Shown here: one piece after another, positions 30,084 to 38,807 of the stretch
Layout of the letters: each line of letters opens with the position of its first letter
Position numbering within the stretch: the first letter of the stretch is position 1
Origin: Gemmatimonadota bacterium
Lineage (GTDB): Bacteria; Gemmatimonadota; Gemmatimonadetes; Gemmatimonadales; GWC2-71-9
Assembly (NCBI GenBank): GCA_039586365.1
Contig: JBDHKN010000001.1
Span: forward strand, 128,001 to 192,000
Reading direction: 5' to 3'
DNA length: 64,000 nucleotides
Program-made: the position numbers and the translations under genes
The notes under the pieces: generated by a model
The model's input: only the letters and a program-made list of their open reading frames with translations
Database searches by the model: none
What the model was told of the DNA's origin: nothing

Positions 30084-30373
30084 CTTGCACATTCCGTTGG
30101 AGGAGACAGGTTCTTGTCATGAACGTTTCGTGGTGGGTGGACTGGTGTCAACTGATCCCTAGACCTAAGGCGCGCCGGGTCGCCCACCACGGTCAGCTCG
30201 CAGCAAGGAGCGGTGACGGCCGCATTCGGATGTATTGTTCGTAGCTGGTCCGTTGTTTCAGCACTAAATTGTGGGGCGTCGGCAAGTTGCAGTTCCGTCG
30301 CCGGATCGGCAACCATTTCTGCATGTTAGCCTGGGCATGGACCAGGTCTTCAACCATCGATGAGGAGGTCGGC

Positions 30374-31375
30374 ATGACTGACAGCGAACTTACGCGACGC
30401 GATTTCGTGAAGGTAGGGGCGGTCGGAGCGGCCTCGGTCATCTTGAATACGAATGCTGCCAGTGCCGAGGCGCCCCGCGTCGCCATGCCCGACCGACCGC
30501 TCGGCCGCACCGGCCACCGCGTGAAGCTATTCAGCCTGGGTGGGCAGGCTACACTGGAGATGCAAGGCACCCGGGATCAGTCTATAGAGATCATAAATCG
30601 AGCGATAGATCTGGGAGTCAACTACATTGACACCGCGGCTGCCTACGGTCGTGGGATCAGCCAGACCTACATCGGTGAGGTGATGGCTACCCGGCGCGAC
30701 GAGGTGTTCCTCGCTACCAAGACACACAATCGGACGCGGGATGGGTCCCTGGAGCTGCTGGAGCAGAGCTTGAATCTGCTGCAGACTGACCACCTGGATC
30801 TGTGGCAGCTACATAACGTCCAGCGAAATGAGCAACTCGACACGATCTTTGCAAAAGACGGCGCAGTTCATGCGCTGCAGGAGGCGAAGGAAGAGAAGAT
30901 CGTCCGGTTTCTAGGCATCACCGGACATTTCGATCCCGCCGTGCTCGTTCGGGGACTGAACGGTTTCGACTTCGACACGGTGTTGCTGGCCCTGAATCCC
31001 GCCGATCCTCACTATCTCCCCTTCACTGAGGAACTGCTACCGCTCGCAAACCGGAAGGGACTGGGGATCATAGCAATGAAGATACCGGCACGCGGCCAGC
31101 TGTTCCGTGAGGGGGGAATCACATCTATGAGGGACGCGATGACCTGGGTGATGGCGCACCCGATAAGCACGGTAATAGTGGGCTGTGACACTGTGGAACA
31201 GCTGGAGGAGAACGTCTCAATAGCAGCAAACTTCCAGCCACCATCTGAGCAGGAGTTGGCTCGCATAGCGGGACTAACCGCACACTATCCCAAGGAGGCT
31301 GCTTTCTTCAAGCGTGACGCCGCGGGGTTCCCGGGACGTCGTGACGATGAGGACGATCAGCAGACCGATGACTGA
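30374..31375 (+). CDS. Aldo/keto reductase with Tat signal peptide
   Basis: TRRDFVK, GVNYIDTAAAYG, LATKT, IIAMK; GAGGAGG RBS. Confidence 0.9.
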   Translation: MTDSELTRRDFVKVGAVGAASVILNTNAASAEAPRVAMPDRPLGRTGHRVKLFSLGGQATLEMQGTRDQSIEIINRAIDLGVNYIDTAAAYGRGISQTYIGEVMATRRDEVFLATKTHNRTRDGSLELLEQSLNLLQTDHLDLWQLHNVQRNEQLDTIFAKDGAVHALQEAKEEKIVRFLGITGHFDPAVLVRGLNGFDFDTVLLALNPADPHYLPFTEELLPLANRKGLGIIAMKIPARGQLFREGGITSMRDAMTWVMAHPISTVIVGCDTVEQLEENVSIAANFQPPSEQELARIAGLTAHYPKEAAFFKRDAAGFPGRRDDEDDQQTDD

Positions 31376-31780: not shown

Positions 31781-32125
31781 ATGAAGGCAGAACCGAGTGA
31801 TATCCGCCGTGCCGCCGGGATCTTCAAGGTGTTGTCCCACCCACATCGGCTCAGAATCGCCTGTCAGCTTTCGGACGGTCGCTGTACGACCCAGAAGGAA
31901 CTGATCGAGGAACTGGGCTGGCCCCAATCCACGATGGCCCGCCACCTGTCCGCGCTGCGCGACCGCGGGCTGATCAAAGCCACGCGAAAAGGGCAGGAGG
32001 TGCAGTTGGAGCTGGGCAGTCCTGTCACTCGCCAACTGCTGGAGGCAGTGTGCGTGTGGGTGCATCCTGAAACCGGCGAACGTTTCGCCGGGAGTTTCAA
32101 AATGGCTCCAACCGGGCAAGTGTGA
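31781..32125 (+). CDS. ArsR/SmtB family regulator, SqrR/BigR-like two-Cys type
   Basis: FKVLSHPHRLRIACQL, SHL-type helix (ARHLSALR), C-terminal LLEAVC. Confidence 0.85.
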   Translation: MKAEPSDIRRAAGIFKVLSHPHRLRIACQLSDGRCTTQKELIEELGWPQSTMARHLSALRDRGLIKATRKGQEVQLELGSPVTRQLLEAVCVWVHPETGERFAGSFKMAPTGQV

Positions 32126-34389
32126 TGCGGCGAAGAGAGTTCATACGTATCGGCTCCGGAGCCGCTGGAGCGATGCTCATGGGAGGCCTAGCAAGCGATT
32201 GGTTCAACCTGTACGGCAATCCCCTTCCCGATCCAGGTACTGACGGTGATCGCATAATCCCGTCCTTCTGCGAACTCTGCTTTTGGAAGTGCGGGATATT
32301 GGCTCACGTCAAGAACGGACGTGTCACCAAGATCAAAGGCAATCCCAAAGATCCACTCTCGCACGGTCATCTCTGCCCGCGCGGAGCCGGAGGAACAGGG
32401 CTGCTGTACGATCCGGATCGTCTGAAGAAACCACTGATCAGGGTGAGTAAACGCGGTGGCCAGGAGTTCGAGGAAGTCACGTGGGATGCGGCGCTCAACG
32501 AGGTGGCCGAGAATTTCGAGCGCATCAAGGGGCTGTATGGTGCGTCTGCCTTGGCGCTGTTCTCGCACGGTTACGGCGGCAACTGGATGAAGCACCTATT
32601 CAAAGCCTATGGCTCACCCAACATCGCCGCCCCGTCATATGCGCAGTGCCGCGGCCCCAGGGAAGTCGGCTTCGATTTGACTTTCGGATCGGGAGTTGGG
32701 TCTCCGGAGGTCACTGACATGGCCAACAGCCGGTGCGTCGTGCTCATCGGCAGCCACCTGGGCGAGAACATGCATAACACTCAGGTTCAGGACTTCGCCC
32801 AGGCGATTCGCAATCGTGCGGACATTATCGCTGTCGATCCGCGGTTTTCTGTCGCCGCATCCAAAGCCAACTATTGGCTACCCGTCAAACCTGGAACGGA
32901 CATCGCATTGCTGCTCGCTTGGATGAATGTGATGGTGGGGGAGGGCTTATACGACAGAGAGTACGTCGAGGGGTACACAGTAGGGTTCGAGCAACTGAAG
33001 GCACACGTCGAACCGTACACACCAGAGTGGGCCTACCCTAGGACAGGACTCGAGCCGGAGTTGATTCGGCGGACAGCGCGCGTGATGGCCGCTGCGAAGC
33101 CAGCCACCTTGATCCACCCAGGCAGACACGTAACCTGGTACGGCAATGACACCCAACGGTCTCGAGCGATCGCAATCTTGAACGCACTCCTCGGGTCGTG
33201 GGGTCGCAAAGGTGGGTTCTACATTCCGTCTCAGGTGGAGCTACCCCCTTACAGGTATCCGGGCTATCGGGCGCCGGAGGGCGAGGCAGCGGATCGCCCC
33301 CAACCGAGCGACTACCCCCTGGGTGATGAGGTGCTAGCGCAGGGTGTTTGCGAAGCGACAATCCCGGGCGTGCGAGAGGAATCCGGCATCAAGGGCTGGA
33401 TGGTGTACGGCTCAAACCTGCCGACAACCCTGCCCAATCCCAAGCAGACGTACCAGGCAATCCAAGAACTTGAGTTCTTGGTGACAGTGGACGTGTTGCC
33501 GGCGGAGATCGCTGGCTGGTCGGACGTGGTCCTTCCCGAAGCAACCTACTTGGAGCGGTGTGACGAACTGTTAGCCCCAAGCTATCGGCAGCCCTACATC
33601 GCGGTACGTCAGGAGGTAGTTCCACCGATGTACGACAGCAAGCCCGGTTGGTGGATAGGGCGCGAACTTGGGAAGCGGATAGGGCTTCCCGAGTTTTTTC
33701 CGTGGACAGATTCGATCGAGTATGCCCAGACGCGGCTGCACGAAGCTGGGTACGACTGTGAGGAACTCCAGCGTGATGGCGTCATACTTGGGCCGCCGCA
33801 ACCGCTCTACTTTGAGGAGGGAGCTGCACCGGAGTTCTACACCGACTCTGGGAAGATCGAACTGTACTCCGCACGGCTTGCGAGCTACGGCTTCGATCCC
33901 ATGCCGACGTATCACGAAGCTGAAGTTGAGGAACCACCGACAGGATACTACCGACTGCTCTTCGGTCGGGCCCCGAGCCATACGTTCGGTCGTACGACCA
34001 ACAACCGGTTGTTGTCAGAGGTCTACTCAGAAAACACCGTTTGGGTAAACGGTGCCGTCGCTGGGAAGTGGGGCCTGCAGGACGGTGACCGAGTCTATCT
34101 CCAAAACCAGGACGGAGTGCGCTCATCCTTCTCAGGCCCCGTGAAAGTAACTGAGCGGATTCGTCCCGACGCCGTTTACCTGGTGCACGGCTACGGCCGC
34201 AAGGCGAGAAAACTACGCTTCGTTTACGGCAAGGGTATCGACGACAACGAGCTGATCACACGCTACAAGACAGATCCAGTCATGGGTGGGACCGGAATGA
34301 ACGTGAACTTTGTGACGTTCTTGCGGGCGAGTGAAGTGGATGCGGAACTCGCCGCGCCGGCTGCTGAGACAGAGGTGGAGAATGGTTGA
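32122..34389 (+). CDS. psrA: Polysulfide/thiosulfate reductase catalytic molybdopterin subunit (PsrA/PhsA family)
   Basis: Tat RRREFI, CELCFWKC...HLCPRG FS0 motif, AQCRGPR putative Mo-ligand Cys, DVVLPEATYLER. Confidence 0.8.
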   Translation: MMRRREFIRIGSGAAGAMLMGGLASDWFNLYGNPLPDPGTDGDRIIPSFCELCFWKCGILAHVKNGRVTKIKGNPKDPLSHGHLCPRGAGGTGLLYDPDRLKKPLIRVSKRGGQEFEEVTWDAALNEVAENFERIKGLYGASALALFSHGYGGNWMKHLFKAYGSPNIAAPSYAQCRGPREVGFDLTFGSGVGSPEVTDMANSRCVVLIGSHLGENMHNTQVQDFAQAIRNRADIIAVDPRFSVAASKANYWLPVKPGTDIALLLAWMNVMVGEGLYDREYVEGYTVGFEQLKAHVEPYTPEWAYPRTGLEPELIRRTARVMAAAKPATLIHPGRHVTWYGNDTQRSRAIAILNALLGSWGRKGGFYIPSQVELPPYRYPGYRAPEGEAADRPQPSDYPLGDEVLAQGVCEATIPGVREESGIKGWMVYGSNLPTTLPNPKQTYQAIQELEFLVTVDVLPAEIAGWSDVVLPEATYLERCDELLAPSYRQPYIAVRQEVVPPMYDSKPGWWIGRELGKRIGLPEFFPWTDSIEYAQTRLHEAGYDCEELQRDGVILGPPQPLYFEEGAAPEFYTDSGKIELYSARLASYGFDPMPTYHEAEVEEPPTGYYRLLFGRAPSHTFGRTTNNRLLSEVYSENTVWVNGAVAGKWGLQDGDRVYLQNQDGVRSSFSGPVKVTERIRPDAVYLVHGYGRKARKLRFVYGKGIDDNELITRYKTDPVMGGTGMNVNFVTFLRASEVDAELAAPAAETEVENG

Positions 34390-34930
34390 GAAGCAGTATG
34401 CGATGGTGGTAGACACTCGCACCTGTGTGGGTTGTGGTGCGTGTGTGATCGGCTGCAAGACCGAGAACAGTGTGGCGCAGGGCTACGCGCGGGACTGGGT
34501 GGTCACTGAGACTGCGGGTACCTACCCGTTCCTACAGATGAACGTCAGGTCTGAGCGGTGCAACCATTGTGAAGACGCGCCGTGCGTGACTGTTTGCCCG
34601 ACCGGCGCCTCACACTACGGCCCAGGTCGTACCGTCCAAGTGAACCAGGCCAAGTGTTCGGGTTGCAAGGCGTGCATTGCTGCATGCCCGTACGGTGCCC
34701 GCTTCATCGATCCCCAACTGGGAGCCGTTGATAAGTGCACGTTCTGCGTCCACAGGATCGAGGACGGTATCCCGACCACTTCGTGTCAGGAGATCTGTCC
34801 GACACAGAGCATCTACTTCGGTGATCTGAGTGACACGAACAGCCAAGTCTCCCGGCTCTTGGCCACGCGCGACCACTATACGTTGCTGCCTGACGCTGGG
34901 ACGAAGCCCAAGCACTTCTACGTGAGGTGA
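34382..34930 (+). CDS. psrB: 4Fe-4S electron-transfer subunit (PsrB/NrfC family)
   Basis: CVGCGACVIGC, CNHCEDAPCVTVCP, CSGCKACIAACP, CTFC...CQEICP. Confidence 0.85.
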   Translation: MVEKQYAMVVDTRTCVGCGACVIGCKTENSVAQGYARDWVVTETAGTYPFLQMNVRSERCNHCEDAPCVTVCPTGASHYGPGRTVQVNQAKCSGCKACIAACPYGARFIDPQLGAVDKCTFCVHRIEDGIPTTSCQEICPTQSIYFGDLSDTNSQVSRLLATRDHYTLLPDAGTKPKHFYVR

Positions 34931-34940
34931 GTAGGCTACC

Positions 34941-35903
34941 ATGAATGAGATCACGACGACGCGACACAATCCTTTGATTGACCCAGTGCTTCACGTGTGG
35001 CATGGCGAGGTCGCGCTGTATTTGTTTCTCGGCGGCGTAGTGGCGGGGATAATGGTGCTCTCCGGGATGTGGCTGCTCCGCAGGCCTATTCCTGAACGCT
35101 CCCGCGCCCTGTCATTCTTGCCGTGGGCCAGTCCGGCACTCCTTTCGGTGGGCATGTTCTTTCTCTGGCTAGACTTGGAACATCCGTGGAATGCCTACCG
35201 CTTCTACCTGGCCTTTCGAGCGAGCTCTCCCATGTCTTGGGGCGCCTGGATTCTGATTGCCATCTACCCCGCTTCGGTTCTGCTAGCTTGAACGGGTTCT
35301 CCGCCGGACTTCCGCCAGCGCTGGGAACAGCGCTTAGCGTTGCTTCCGCCGGTTGCACGGCTTGGTCGCTGGGCGGTTCAACACGTCCGACAGCTTGCGC
35401 TAATCAACGTGCTGACCGGCGCTGCCCTCGGCCTCTACACAGGTGTTCTCCTGGGGACGATGGCCGCGCGCCCACTGTGGAATTCTGCGATCCTCGGCCC
35501 ACTGTTCCTCGTGTCCGGTCTCTCCACGGGGGCGGCCTTTCTTCTCCTGTATCGCCTTGGCGATCAGGAGCGCATTCTGCTGGGCAGGGTCGATATGGGG
35601 TTGATTGTTGCTGAATTGTGCTTGCTCGCGCTCTGGCTGATCGGCCTTGCAAGTGGTGGCATCGCTGCCAGAGCGGCCGTTTCCATCTTCTTCGGAGGGT
35701 CGTACACGGCGGCGTTTTGGACGCTGGTAGTGGCTCTGGGACTCGTCACACCATTGATCGGAGAGTGGATCGAGCATCGCAATCGCGTCGTCCCAGGCCG
35801 CGCCATCGCCATACTGGTTCTGGTCGGTGGCTTCGCACTGCGTTGGATCGTGGTCTTTGCCGGCCAGCATGCACGGTGGGTTGGCGAAGTCGCATTGCGA
35901 TAA
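34941..35903 (+). CDS. psrC: NrfD/PsrC membrane anchor with an in-frame TGA at 35289-35291
   Basis: The two ORF-track pieces share one frame: ALYLFLGG, DLEHP, SPMSWGAW before the stop; YTGVLL, RPLWNS, SGLSTGAA, LRWIVV after it. Confidence 0.8.
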
Positions 35904-35918
35904 GAGGAAGAGAATCTC

Positions 35919-36431
35919 ATGACTGCAAGACCATACTGGAATCCGTATCTCGCCGGCGCGCTATTGGGACTGGCCCTGCTGGGCGCATTCCTGATTGCCG
36001 GACAAGGGCTAGGCGCCAGTGCGTTTCCCAAGAGGGTACTGGCCGTGGCAGGTAGCGAGGTAGCGCCGCAGTGGACGGCGCGGAATCCATCGCTTGGCCA
36101 ATACGTGGAAGATGACTCCAACCCGCTGCGAAACTGGCTCGTAGTTGAGGTGATTGGTGTGGTGTTGGGTGGGTTAATCGGCGCCCTCAGCGCCGGACGG
36201 CTCAAGGCCACCGTTGAGAAGGGTCCCAACATCTCGGTGAGGGGAAGGCTAGGCTATGCCTTGGGTGGTGGGATCATCATGGGGTTTGCAGCGGCGCTGG
36301 CCCGGGGCTGCACTTCCGGGCAGGCTCTCAGCGGCGGTGCCCTACTGGCGACCGGTAGTTGGATCTTCATGATGATGTTCTTTGCCGGGGCCTATGCGTT
36401 CGCGTACGTGGTTAGGAGGCAATGGCTATGA
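35919..36431 (+). CDS. YeeE/YedE family sulfur-compound transporter (half-size)
   Basis: YWNPYLAG, LARGCTSGQALSG. Confidence 0.88.
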   Translation: MTARPYWNPYLAGALLGLALLGAFLIAGQGLGASAFPKRVLAVAGSEVAPQWTARNPSLGQYVEDDSNPLRNWLVVEVIGVVLGGLIGALSAGRLKATVEKGPNISVRGRLGYALGGGIIMGFAAALARGCTSGQALSGGALLATGSWIFMMMFFAGAYAFAYVVRRQWL

Positions 36432-37624
36432 GTGACGCGGTCTTCCCAATCGTCTTTGCTTCAGAGGAAGCACGTCTCCTTACGGCAATCTTACTGGGAT
36501 TCCTGTTTGGGTTTGCCCTCGAACGAGCCGGTTTTGGCAACGCGCGCAAGCTCGTCGGTCAATTCTATCTGCACGACATGACGGTTTTCAAGGTGATGTT
36601 CACTGCCGTGTTGGTGGCGACGGTTGGACTCTATTCGTTGTCCGCCTTCGGGTTCTTGGATATGTCGCGCATGTGGGTCAACCCGACCTTTGTTTGGGCC
36701 CAGTTGATCGGCGGATTCATGTTGGGGATCGGGTTCATCATGAGTGGCCTGTGTCCGGGCACGTCTGTAGTATCGGCCGCCTCCGGACGATGGGATGGAC
36801 TGGTGACGTTCGCTGGGATGTTCGTCGGTTCGTTCGCCTTCGCATTGTTCAGCGATTGGTTCCCGATCCTGGTGCGGCTGTACGAAGGTGGTTCCCTCGG
36901 TGTGTCAATGCTGCCACAACTCCTGGGACTATCTGTCCCATGGTTCATCCTGGGAGTCGTGCTTCTTGCAGGCGCAGCGTTCGTTGGTGCTGAGAGGGTC
37001 GAGCAGATCTTCCAGCGGGAGCAGCGGCCAGTAGAACTGACACCTGAACCCACTCGCCGTGCGCGGCGGTACAAATTCGGTCTGGCCGGTAGCCTAGCAT
37101 TGGTGGCATTGGTGGCCTCGGGAGCGTCAGCACCGCGCGTCGAGCAACCGCAGGTCCGGGCGGTGGAGATCGCACCGCTCGAGCTGGCTGAGGCGATCAT
37201 TGCCAAGAACCCCGGGCTGCTGATTCTGGACCTCCGCAGTCAGACCGATTCGCCGGGCTTGGTGATACCTGGTGCAATACCGATCGGCCCCGACCATACA
37301 GCCGTACAGTATCTGCAAGGAGCTGCGCCTGAGACGGTTGTGGTGCTCTGCGACGAAACTGGGACCATGGCCACCGTGCCGACCGAGTGGCCGCAGAAGC
37401 TCGACTACCGGATCGTGGCCGGCGGTATTGAGGGCTGGCGAGCTGAGGTGTTGACTCCGATCCAAGCCATCAGCTCGGCACTAGCAGAACGGGAATTTGT
37501 GGCTCGGCAGAACCAGATTGCGGGCTTCTTCTCCGGGGCGGCGGTACGCCCAGCGGCGGTGAGTGCTCCGCCGGTGGTGAGCACTCTCGGTCCGAAGAAG
37601 AAAAAGAAATCGATGGGTTGCTGA
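36422..37624 (+). CDS. YeeE/YedE domain fused to a rhodanese-like domain and a C-terminal Cys tail
   Basis: FGFALERAGF, GLCPGT; then ILDLR..IPGA..VVLCD..AGGIEGW; ends PKKKKKSMGC. Confidence 0.85.
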   Translation: MAMSDAVFPIVFASEEARLLTAILLGFLFGFALERAGFGNARKLVGQFYLHDMTVFKVMFTAVLVATVGLYSLSAFGFLDMSRMWVNPTFVWAQLIGGFMLGIGFIMSGLCPGTSVVSAASGRWDGLVTFAGMFVGSFAFALFSDWFPILVRLYEGGSLGVSMLPQLLGLSVPWFILGVVLLAGAAFVGAERVEQIFQREQRPVELTPEPTRRARRYKFGLAGSLALVALVASGASAPRVEQPQVRAVEIAPLELAEAIIAKNPGLLILDLRSQTDSPGLVIPGAIPIGPDHTAVQYLQGAAPETVVVLCDETGTMATVPTEWPQKLDYRIVAGGIEGWRAEVLTPIQAISSALAEREFVARQNQIAGFFSGAAVRPAAVSAPPVVSTLGPKKKKKSMGC

Positions 37625-37633
37625 CCCTGGGAG

Positions 37634-38458
37634 CTAGCTCGCTGGTTTCCTGGCTCTGATGAAGGCGCTCATGAACCGACCGTCTATCTGAGATGCTACT
37701 GACTCTACATCCAGACCGGCCCCTGAGAGGAAAGTCCTGGCGTCGTCCACGCTGTAGATGCGTGTGGGTTCAATGGCGGCGTCTTGGAAGCCTACCTCTT
37801 GCAGAAGCCGCTCGAATTCGGACTCCTCAAGAGCGCCGGCTATGCAGCCCGTCCACAGTTCCACACTCTGCCTAATGTCTTGCGGCACCTCACCTCGAAC
37901 GACTACGTCCGATACGGCGAACCTGCCGCCCGGCCTAAGCACCCTGTAGGCCTCGCGCAACGCCCGCTGCTTGTCGGCGGAGAGGTTAATCACGCAGTTG
38001 GAGATCACGACGTCGACTGAGTTGTCGGGCAGTGGGATTGCCTCGATCTCACCCTTGAGAAACTCTACATTTCGGATGCCTGCCGCGGCAGCGTTTCTTC
38101 GGGCGAGCTCGAGCATCTCGTCGGTCATGTCCAGACCGTAGGCCTTGCCCTGGGGGCCAACGCGGCGTGCGGAGAGTAGCACATCGATCCCGCCGCCCGA
38201 TCCAAGGTCAAGCACTGCTTCACCGGGGGACAACTGAGCCAGCGCCGTGGGATTGCCGCACCCAAGTGACGCAACAACGGCGGGCTTCGGGAGGCCGTCG
38301 GCTTCCTCTGCGCTATAAAGATCCGTTGTGATCGGATCACAGCAGTGACTGCCTGTAGCTGAACCACAGCACGAGTTGGATTGACCGCGCTCGATGCGCG
38401 CTGCGGCGTGTCCGTACTTCTCTCTAACGAAGTCCCTGACCTCTTGTTCTCTTCTCAT
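37634..38458 (-). CDS. arsM: Arsenite S-adenosylmethionine methyltransferase
   Basis: VREKYG, SLGCGNP, LDLGSGGGID, ISNCVINLS, WTGCIAGAL. Confidence 0.93.
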   Translation of the reverse strand: MRREQEVRDFVREKYGHAAARIERGQSNSCCGSATGSHCCDPITTDLYSAEEADGLPKPAVVASLGCGNPTALAQLSPGEAVLDLGSGGGIDVLLSARRVGPQGKAYGLDMTDEMLELARRNAAAAGIRNVEFLKGEIEAIPLPDNSVDVVISNCVINLSADKQRALREAYRVLRPGGRFAVSDVVVRGEVPQDIRQSVELWTGCIAGALEESEFERLLQEVGFQDAAIEPTRIYSVDDARTFLSGAGLDVESVASQIDGRFMSAFIRARKPAS

Positions 38459-38462
38459 GTCA

Positions 38463-38807
38463 CTAATAGCAAGGTGTATGGGTTGGTGCTGCCTCGATGC
38501 AGCAGTCGGCAAACTGTTCTGCCGACGGGGTTGGCTGCAGGAAATTGCTCACTTGTTCAAGCACGTTGCAGCAGGCCCTGTAGAACACCCAACGGCCCTT
38601 CCGGCGAGCGTGGATGAGGCCAGCGTTTCTCAAGGTCTTGAGGTGGAACGACAGAAGCGGTTGACCAGCTCCCAGCGCGTCTTTGATCTCGCATTGACAA
38701 CGCTCGCCATCACCGAGCAGCACCAGTATCCGGAGGCGGGTCTCGTCCGATAAGGCTCGGAGACGGCTCGCGAGAAAGCCACATTGCTCAGATCTCAGGG
38801 AACGCAC
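38463..38807 (-). CDS. arsR: ArsR family As(III)-responsive repressor
   Basis: ALSDETRLRIL, ERCQCEI, LSFHLKTL, GRWVFY, extra CC pairs; upstream of arsM. Confidence 0.85.
   Translation of the reverse strand: MRSLRSEQCGFLASRLRALSDETRLRILVLLGDGERCQCEIKDALGAGQPLLSFHLKTLRNAGLIHARRKGRWVFYRACCNVLEQVSNFLQPTPSAEQFADCCIEAAPTHTPCY

Follow-up and report, generated by a model that had tools for sequence, protein, structure and literature searches.

A stretch of 64,000 nucleotides from a Gemmatimonadota bacterium (the window) carries an operon for a PsrABC-type molybdoenzyme, which is followed by two genes for the halves of a YeeE/YedE-type sulfur channel (Table 1). The second of these genes encodes a fusion protein of 400 residues, in which the N-terminal half of YeeE is extended by transmembrane (TM) helices, a rhodanese-like domain, and a flexible tail ending in a Cys residue. 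We propose that this terminal Cys is a tethered periplasmic carrier of sulfane sulfur, mounted as a SoxY-like swinging arm on one half of a split YeeE/YedE (PmpAB-type) channel, and assign to this reading a probability of roughly 0.55. The parts listed in an initial annotation of the DNA, namely a YeeE domain with the motif GLCPGT (containing Cys111), a rhodanese-like domain with the motif VVLCDETG (containing Cys310), an Ala/Pro-rich stretch, the run KKKKK, and a terminal GC, are all present in the translated open reading frame.

The cysteine-tipped arm, its channel, and its predicted membrane side

The C-terminus of the fusion protein reads ...APPVVSTLGPKKKKKSMGC, its last residues being KKKKKSMGC with Cys400 at the very end. 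Of the candidates scored in a homolog search of a collection of 5.8 billion proteins, 799 proved to be relatives; homologs are labelled Gemmatimonadota, and the best 120 are all 375–403 residues long. A Gly-Cys end preceded by a Lys/Arg cluster occurs in 118 of these 120, the two exceptions being a truncated protein and one ending in ...KKKRSG; when the 120 homologs are aligned with the fusion protein, conservation of the terminal Cys amounts to 98%. When one genome per species was scanned, 364 stretches were confirmed, and the 80 best loci among them were analyzed; seven of these are truncated by the end of the contig, and the 73 loci with a complete C-terminus all have a Cys within the last three residues. 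These loci were located via peptide patterns in the YeeE N-half, a sample that cannot reveal modules (the rhodanese-like domain with its tail) that have no YeeE neighbor. A profile search of 1.84 billion representatives yielded 140 hits at E ≤ 1e-30, and the best 149 hits inspected comprised 46 long multi-rhodanese proteins and 103 short ones, 100 of the latter having Cys among the last three residues, mostly in the pattern [K/R]n-x-[E/G]-G-C. About a hundred 50%-identity clusters from several phyla are represented among the best profile hits, and those with names bear generic labels only. The terminal Cys of the Lys-rich tail, whose conservation in homologs had been put forward in the initial annotation as a check on the arm, is thus retained almost without exception in all three sets.

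The end of the arm belongs to the best-conserved positions of the module. In an alignment of 50 fused and stand-alone modules (alignment A4), seven columns are invariant, including the terminal Gly and Cys (G188 and C189); in the numbering of the fusion protein, Gly399 and Cys400 are invariant in alignments A1, A3, and A4, and Phe370 and Gly372 in A1 and A3. The terminal Cys is the sole Cys in 88 of 116 modules, and exactly two Cys residues are present in 91 of the 121 sequences that consist of the fusion protein and its 120 homologs. The modules end mostly in GGC or EGC (EGC in 59/116), and variant ends include GGCS and GGCGG, the latter being identical to the SoxY motif (L071 and P0203); an Isosphaeraceae protein with that motif ends in KVKGGCGG. 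The tail is composed largely of Ala (16%), Pro (12.5%), Lys (11%), and Gly (11%), with 4.3 basic residues on average in its last ten positions, and beyond the FFxG motif it has a median length of 29 residues in fused proteins, compared with 41 in the remaining forms. By our estimate, a fully extended tail of 29 residues would reach over roughly 100 Å.

The overall architecture was derived from Pfam matches and predicted structures. Residues 37–229 match the N-half of the Sulf_transp profile (69.9 bits, cut-off 27; positions 3–193 of 310), and residues 255–341 weakly match Rhodanese (24.3 bits, cut-off 22.2). The ~230 residues beyond the N-half contain two TM helices, the rhodanese-like domain, and the Cys arm; a single extra TM helix had been assumed after the YeeE domain, and the model corrects this to two (model residues 172–200 and 212–234), which follow the four-TM YeeE half and bring the total to six. 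In the full-length model (48 sequences; mean predicted local distance difference test score, pLDDT, 69.9), the membrane part is poorly modeled without its partner (pLDDT 47–77 per ten-residue block), the rhodanese domain has pLDDT values of 85–97, and the last 29 residues have no secondary structure (46–63). A model of the module only (116 sequences; mean pLDDT, 89) again shows a tail devoid of secondary structure (about 70), and over both models the rhodanese domain scores 85–98 and the helix of residues 354–371 about 90–96. Comparison by VIA-align assigns the domain to the rhodanese fold (Z-score 12.4 to PDB entry 1YT8, with a root-mean-squared deviation (rmsd) of 2.1 over 96 aligned residues; Z-score 12.0 to GlpE, 1GN0), and a Foldseek search with the full-length model returned rhodanese chains only, at E-values of 1e-3 or weaker. 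The cytoplasmic loop between the two added helices has a conserved motif, PVELTPxP, at residues 199–209 (window positions 37016–37048), with Leu206 and Pro208 conserved to at least 90%; a sulfur acceptor in the cytoplasm might dock there.

Two genes encode the channel, since their products match complementary halves of the Sulf_transp profile; the genes overlap by 10 bases in the order C-half, N-half. A precedent is PmpAB, described in a passage of PMC11582611: in alignments, PmpB corresponds to the N-half of YeeE and PmpA to the C-half, and both proteins have a single conserved Cys. The 170-residue partner fits the half-size form (~130 residues and four TM helices), from which the fusion protein, with 400 residues and six TM helices, departs. 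Cys111 is kept in 121/121 sequences and aligns with Cys91 of StYeeE in the structure 6LEO; Cys131 of the C-half partner is kept in 76/76. From the half-to-half correspondence given in the same passage of PMC11582611, we infer that Cys131 is the equivalent of Cys293 of StYeeE, which faces the periplasm. The split YedE1E2 is described, in the section of PMC10812762 that deals with it, as importing zero-valent sulfur via two essential Cys residues. At the cytoplasmic exit of YeeE, YeeD provides a "fourth cysteine", and natural YeeE–YeeD fusions exist (PMC11073785).

The side of the membrane on which the arm lies was deduced from loop charges and from the YeeE crystal structure, in which, as far as described in a passage of PMC7449682, the chain starts outside and ends inside, with helix H7 reversing the topology of the halves and the H7–H8 loop in the cytoplasm. 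Mean counts over the 121 fused sequences (Lys + Arg versus Asp + Glu) are 0.0 versus 2.3 for the N-terminus, 2.0 versus 1.0 for the H1–H3 loop, 0.5 versus 1.0 for the H3–H4 loop, 0.4 versus 1.7 for the H6–H7 loop, 6.6 versus 2.4 for the loop after the H7-like helix, and 1.0 versus 1.8 for the 15 residues after the extra TM helix. This alternation exactly matches the N-out topology of the crystal structure, and Lys + Arg residues are more numerous before the extra TM helix than after it in 120 of the 121 sequences. Because the alternation fits an N-out protein, with the extra helix taking the chain back out, the rhodanese-like domain and the tail are predicted to be periplasmic, like the PsrA exported by the twin-arginine pathway. 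Topology prediction had been another check proposed at the outset, and the predicted side of the tail is that of PsrA, both by charge bias and by homology to YeeE. In the C-half partner, the loops at both termini and in the center are basic, which fits an N-in/C-in arrangement. Modules encoded by separate genes in the loci have a basic N-terminus followed by a hydrophobic anchor in 17/17 cases; with a strict filter, an uncharged hydrophobic 17-mer near the N-terminus was detected in 40 of the 65 stand-alone representatives examined. The 15-residue flanks of the stand-alone anchors contain on average 2.45 Lys + Arg and 0.35 Asp + Glu before the anchor, and 1.85 and 2.02, respectively, after it.

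The module occurs in three forms among the best 80 of the 364 loci. The fused form is present in 52 loci, from Gemmatimonadota, Latescibacterota, Acidobacteriota, and others. In 17 loci (one of which, L077, is also labeled "other"), a separate gene directly after that for the YeeE N-half encodes a basic N-terminus, one hydrophobic anchor, a Cys-less rhodanese-like domain, the motif FFGG, a linker, and the end KKKKKEGC; these loci belong to Ignavibacteria, Chlorobi, Bacteroidota, Kapaibacterium, Zhuqueibacterota, Gemmatimonas, and a metagenome-assembled genome of Hyphomicrobiales. A reduced form, found in three Desulfobacterales loci (L063, L072, and L074), consists of the YeeE N-half, an extra TM helix, and a Lys/Pro-rich linker ending in ...DEGC; it lacks the rhodanese domain, and genes for Psr are absent within 7 kb. 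The arm therefore belongs to the YeeE pair, since the Desulfobacterales keep the TM helix, linker, and EGC end in the absence of both rhodanese and Psr. The surroundings of these reduced loci are unlike those of Psr: the YeeE pair with the Cys tail that lacks the rhodanese domain (6612–7415 in L063 and 6687–7388 in L072) is preceded by a gene for a HEAT-repeat protein, and the neighbors are genes of oxidative stress and redox metabolism, for cytochrome bd, AhpC, rubrerythrin, and a ferredoxin-thioredoxin-reductase/glutaredoxin fusion.

Linkage to Psr was counted over the 53 loci in which the C-terminus is complete and the upstream sequence extends for at least 4.5 kb. Matches to PsrA, PsrB, and PsrC lie directly upstream in 47 of them; three others have PsrA and PsrC matches with no open reading frame labeled PsrB (labeling being from stop to stop), and the three with no Psr match are all from Desulfobacterales. 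In L078, for which only 3.2 kb of upstream sequence is available, a MarR regulator and a two-domain rhodanese take the place of Psr. The arm module thus accompanies the YeeE pair in every locus examined, and Psr does so usually, not always. In L034, L042, and L054, two consecutive NrfD/PsrC-like open reading frames stand between psrB and the gene for the YeeE C-half, where other loci have one.

Proposed sulfur carriage and alternative readings

In SoxY, the sulfur is bound to a Cys flanked by Gly at the tip of a swinging arm, as stated in passages of PMC5336275 and PMC6067878, and a hand-over from SoxY to the YeeE-like SoxT has been proposed in a passage of PMC11582611. The flexible C-terminal arm of the fusion protein likewise terminates in a Cys next to Gly, and the carriage of sulfur by this Cys is a prediction. 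Charge bias and YeeE topology predict a periplasmic location of the rhodanese-like domain, and the gene adjoins psrABC. In the mechanism that we envisage, the terminal thiol, rendered more reactive by the neighboring basic residues, would take up zero-valent sulfur from polysulfide or S8 as a persulfide. The arm would then pass the sulfur to the periplasm-facing Cys131 of the channel partner, from which it could be relayed from Cys to Cys across the membrane. The arm may also exchange sulfur with the active site of the PsrA encoded in this operon, as Sud does for the Psr of Wolinella, while the inactive rhodanese domain would serve as a scaffold or docking module. Sulfur might flow either way, from the carrier to PsrA for reduction (Sud-like), or from PsrA via the carrier to the channel for import. 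Metabolic models already include periplasmic rhodaneses encoded with psr and a YeeE that takes sulfur from periplasmic transferases (PMC12142623).

A more far-reaching version, which we consider possible and offer tentatively, is a Cys bucket brigade connecting the periplasmic molybdoenzyme to the other side of the membrane, in which the arm has been grafted via the inactive rhodanese domain, and Psr works on, or loads, arm-bound sulfur instead of free polysulfide. If true, the action of Psr on arm-bound sulfur would be an undescribed mode of sulfur respiration or uptake.

Several points weigh against the assignment of the arm as a sulfur carrier. The persulfidation of the arm, its topology, and its contacts with partners are all inferred. 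A positively charged vestibule, as described for StYeeE in a passage of PMC7449682, would, if present in this family, repel a Lys-rich tail. The operon is patchy in the phylum, with a match to the module at E ≤ 1e-20 in nine of 201 sampled genomes (that of the window included), and it may lack function in this genome, judging from an in-frame TGA codon in psrC. Furthermore, the module profile includes the tail columns, which favors tail-bearing hits in the profile search, and the 69 representatives added to alignment A5 were picked for having a terminal Cys.

The conservation, tethering, and flexibility of the arm are equally expected of a regulatory plug or redox switch, in which the terminal Cys would form a reversible disulfide or polysulfide bridge with the periplasm-facing channel Cys or a second copy of the protein, thereby gating the channel or sensing periplasmic sulfur. 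With 29 residues after FFSG in this protein, and 41 as the median elsewhere, the tail has sufficient length to fold back, and the periplasm is an oxidizing compartment. Sequence does not separate such a switch from a carrier; however, the linkage of a catalytic reductase in 50 of the 53 loci and the exact SoxY motif GGCGG in some members fit better with the handling of a substrate, and we regard the switch as unlikely.

Selenium or arsenic might replace sulfur as the cargo: selenium could travel on the arm in a selenotrisulfide or perselenide, or the arm could bind As(III), on behalf of a Psr-like selenite or thioarsenate reductase. Both channel halves weakly match models of the YedE selenium transporter (E-values of 8e-8 and 1e-8, far below the cut-off), and genes for an arsenite methyltransferase (ArsM) and a second ArsR adjoin the operon on the opposite strand. 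An ArsM gene (61–72% identity) flanks seven closely related loci (L002, L003, L004, L006, L007, L009, and L055), six of them together with ArsR2, and these neighbors are not found beside more distant loci; they may be a hint of arsenic or selenium chemistry, or mere inherited synteny. Against this proposal, PsrA is by far closest to the Psr/Phs-type enzyme of Thermus, aligning over its full length with Thermus thermophilus PsrA (2VPW–2VPZ; E-value of 5.8e-208 to 2VPW), whereas ArrA and other members of the dimethyl sulfoxide reductase family match it far more weakly (130–136 bits for ArrA). In addition, the ArsM/ArsR neighbors are confined to the closest relatives, the characterized split YedE1E2 moves zero-valent sulfur, and a single thiol makes a poor As(III) site, making the selenium/arsenic system improbable.

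The initial annotation had favored a relay of three stations, in which the arm would shuttle sulfur between the YeeE pair, a catalytic Cys310 of the rhodanese site, and the molybdenum center, and the poly-Lys run would attract anionic sulfur species. Cys310 is indeed present, at or beside the position of the active-loop Cys, in the fusion protein and in its 91%-identical relative P0001. The canonical rhodanese active loop has the pattern C-x-x-G-x-R-S and usually forms a cationic cradle. HMMER alignments to solved rhodaneses disagree on the register: that to 3FOJ places the family Tyr on the catalytic Cys, whereas those to the two domains of 6MXV place the Asp there. Alignment A4, which includes the stand-alone forms (with the loop Y-S-E-G-G-I-H-S-A-Q), has the Ser of these forms at the canonical Cys position, Cys310 on the preceding Tyr, and Asp311 at the catalytic position; Cys310 is thus probably located one residue before the catalytic position. 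Among the 121 aligned sequences, column 310 is occupied by Tyr in 84, Val in 18, Phe in 9, Leu in 4, Ile in 4, and Cys in 2. The column that follows has Asp in the fused forms and Ser or Ala in the stand-alone forms, and the domain contains no other conserved Cys; in A4, the other 49 modules lack Cys both at 310 and at the next position. Cys310 is therefore regarded as a private substitution, and the domain as a family, judged from these alignments, is a dead rhodanese lacking the catalytic Cys. Since Cys310 is private and the family loop is acidic (CDETG or YDExG) or Cys-less, a role of the rhodanese site as a station of the relay is not supported. The claim of a Cys in the rhodanese loop hence stands for this protein and one relative, and that of a relay station there does not. 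The entire rhodanese domain is moreover absent from the Desulfobacterales forms, and the three-station relay is accordingly very improbable.

YeeE-tethered cytoplasmic Cys carriers exist in the YeeE–YeeD fusions and a polybasic stretch would suit the cytoplasmic face of the membrane, but a cytoplasmic domain and tail, with the arm as a tethered YeeD/TusA equivalent at the channel exit and its lysines on the inner leaflet, is scarcely credible in view of the N-out charge alternation, the Lys/Arg-rich loop preceding the last TM helix in nearly all fused sequences, and the basic N-terminus plus hydrophobic anchor of the stand-alone forms, a pattern of exported or type II anchored proteins.

Two further identities of the tail were rejected. 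In PEP-CTERM and GlyGly-CTERM sorting signals, a hydrophobic helix follows the motif; in the present family Cys is the last residue, leaving no room for such a helix. A ThiS/MoaD-like precursor with a GG end for thiocarboxylate formation was dismissed because about half of the modules end in EGC, and because its activation would presumably need cytoplasmic ATP.

The operon and its surroundings

The features of the operon and its flanks are listed in Table 1. The ArsR/SmtB regulator that opens the conserved cluster scores only 43 bits on the BigR model (cut-off 155), and a homolog is found upstream of psrA in most of the related loci. PsrA reaches 482 bits on the NCBIfam PhsA model, below its cut-off of 694, and its substrate is therefore not nameable from sequence. 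In 49 homologs whose PsrA is one full-length open reading frame, a start codon lies beside an RRxF motif.

Table 1. Positions, in the window, of the operon, the parts of the fusion protein, and the flanking genes.
Feature	Position	Strand	Basis or remark
Aldo/keto reductase with twin-arginine signal	30269–31375	+	Just 5' of the operon's ArsR
ArsR/SmtB-family regulator, first gene of the conserved cluster	31781–32125	+	Pfam HTH_20/HTH_5; HTH_metalloreg 62.7 bits (cut-off 55)
PsrA/PhsA-type molybdopterin subunit, 755 residues, twin-arginine signal RRREFIR	32122–34389	+	Pfam Molybdopterin, Molybdop_Fe4S4, Molydop_binding
PsrB-type 4Fe-4S subunit	34382–34930	+	Fer4_11 and related Pfam; start uncertain (GTG 34331, ATG 34382 or ATG 34403)
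PsrC/NrfD membrane subunit, in-frame TGA 35289–35291	34941–35903	+	NrfD matches on both pieces
YeeE C-half (PmpA/YedE1-like), 170 residues, invariant Cys131 (ARGCTSG)	35919–36431	+	Sulf_transp 76.9 bits, profile 175–309
Fusion gene (YeeE N-half + two TM helices + rhodanese-like domain + Cys-tipped tail)	36422–37624	+	Open reading frame intact, 400 residues
YeeE N-half core, residues 17–147, four TM helices	36470–36862	+	Cys111 codon 36752–36754
H7-like TM helix (170–193), basic cytoplasmic loop (194–218, ...RRARRYK), extra TM helix (219–237)	36929–37132	+	Model helices, loop charges
Rhodanese-fold domain, residues 244–345, non-catalytic as a family	37151–37456	+	Private Cys310 codon 37349–37351
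Conserved helix ending in the FFSG motif, residues 354–371	37481–37534	+	Predicted structure, conservation
Flexible Ala/Pro-rich tail, residues 372–400	37535–37621	+	KKKKK 37595–37609; Cys400 codon 37619–37621
Arsenite methyltransferase and second ArsR	37634–38512 and 38463–38807	-	Tail-to-tail with the fusion gene; ArsM NCBIfam 368 bits (cut-off 263)

The TGA codon in psrC divides the gene into pieces of 116 and 204 codons, and nearly all relatives have an intact psrC of about 320 codons. In 67 homologs, the residue most often found in the corresponding column is Trp (41), followed by Leu (21), Ile (3), and Phe and Ala (one each); because Trp predominates, we regard the TGA as a single TGG-to-TGA change, and recoding of the codon was rejected in favor of this simpler explanation. 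An assembly error, a variant within the population, and a true nonsense mutation are all possible origins of this codon; a true mutation might impair the strain's reductase, with the channel genes remaining open.

The aldo/keto reductase gene that precedes the operon has a copy of 78% identity at the same position in L002, and export is unusual for such an enzyme. No further sulfur genes were found in the rest of the 64-kb window, which contains housekeeping genes. The assembly from which the window was taken comprises 132 contigs and is 86% complete, and SoxY was not found in this genome at that completeness.

Relation to known sulfur-handling systems

How zero-valent sulfur, which is insoluble or unstable, reaches periplasmic reductases and crosses the inner membrane has been a long-standing gap, to which Sud, SoxY, and YeeD each provide one part of the answer. 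In the module family, a terminal-Cys arm and a periplasmic scaffold are joined to half of a channel, either within a single polypeptide or within an operon. No NCBIfam family reached its cut-off for the fusion protein or for five distant modules, matches in the ESM Atlas were confined to clusters named "hypothetical protein" with Rhodanese, and a full-text search, whose coverage excluded subscription journals and supplements, found no published description of a terminal-Cys arm. The gene cluster itself has been noted before: Candidatus Thermonerobacter has psrABC, two DUF395 genes, and a rhodanese-related sulfurtransferase, and its psrABC was compared with those of Melioribacter roseus and Ignavibacterium album in a passage of PMC6338057. 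The gene order given there is that of the split form in Ignavibacteria, Chlorobi, and Bacteroidota; the last gene is called a rhodanese-related sulfurtransferase, and that passage mentions neither the missing catalytic Cys nor a tail with a terminal Cys. The statement of the initial annotation that no characterized protein has this architecture consequently holds as far as curated families are concerned, and has to be qualified for the gene cluster.

Among the characterized proteins, SoxY shares with the module a single reactive Cys beside Gly at the end of a flexible periplasmic peptide that serves sulfur enzymes, the location of the module being predicted, and the ends of L071 and P0203 are exactly those of SoxY. 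Unlike SoxY, the fusion protein has no SoxY domain (PF13501; the Pfam matches at E ≤ 0.01 are Sulf_transp, DUF6691, and Rhodanese only), and the arm of the module is far longer, rich in Lys, tethered to the membrane or channel, and devoid of a SoxZ partner. Sud from Wolinella succinogenes (1QXN) is a periplasmic rhodanese fold that accompanies a Psr-type reductase and is structurally similar to the module (Z-score, 8.8; rmsd, 2.7; 94 aligned residues), with a profile hit at an E-value of 0.048. The single Cys of Sud is reportedly located in the rhodanese active loop, as Klimmek is said to have found in 1999; in contrast, the module family has no active-loop Cys and a conserved one at the C-terminus instead, and it is anchored in the membrane or fused to a channel half, whereas Sud is soluble.

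On the channel side, PmpAB of Serratia and YedE1E2 of Cupriavidus are likewise encoded by two half-size genes, one matching each half of YeeE, and one Cys per half is essential or invariant. The described halves are, in the part of PMC11582611 that covers them, proteins of ~130 residues with four TM helices and no extension, and the extended N-half of the present system is linked to Psr, not to a persulfide dioxygenase. The YeeE–YeeD (TsuA–TsuB) pairs and YeeED fusions resemble the present system in that a Cys-bearing partner, sometimes fused via a linker, adds one station to the relay. YeeD, however, has a TusA fold with a CPxP Cys and acts at the cytoplasmic face; no TusA-family Pfam match was found in the fusion protein, and the module, a rhodanese fold with an arm, is predicted to be periplasmic and would serve the entry instead of the exit.

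The natural fusion points to a hand-over from carrier to YeeE, which has hitherto been proposed only for SoxYZ and SoxT, and whether the arm is a carrier is directly testable by one Cys-to-Ser change. Altogether, the module may be viewed as a combination of known kinds of elements, that is, a SoxY-type arm, a Sud-type helper of a Psr-type reductase, and a YeeE–YeeD-type extension of the Cys relay.

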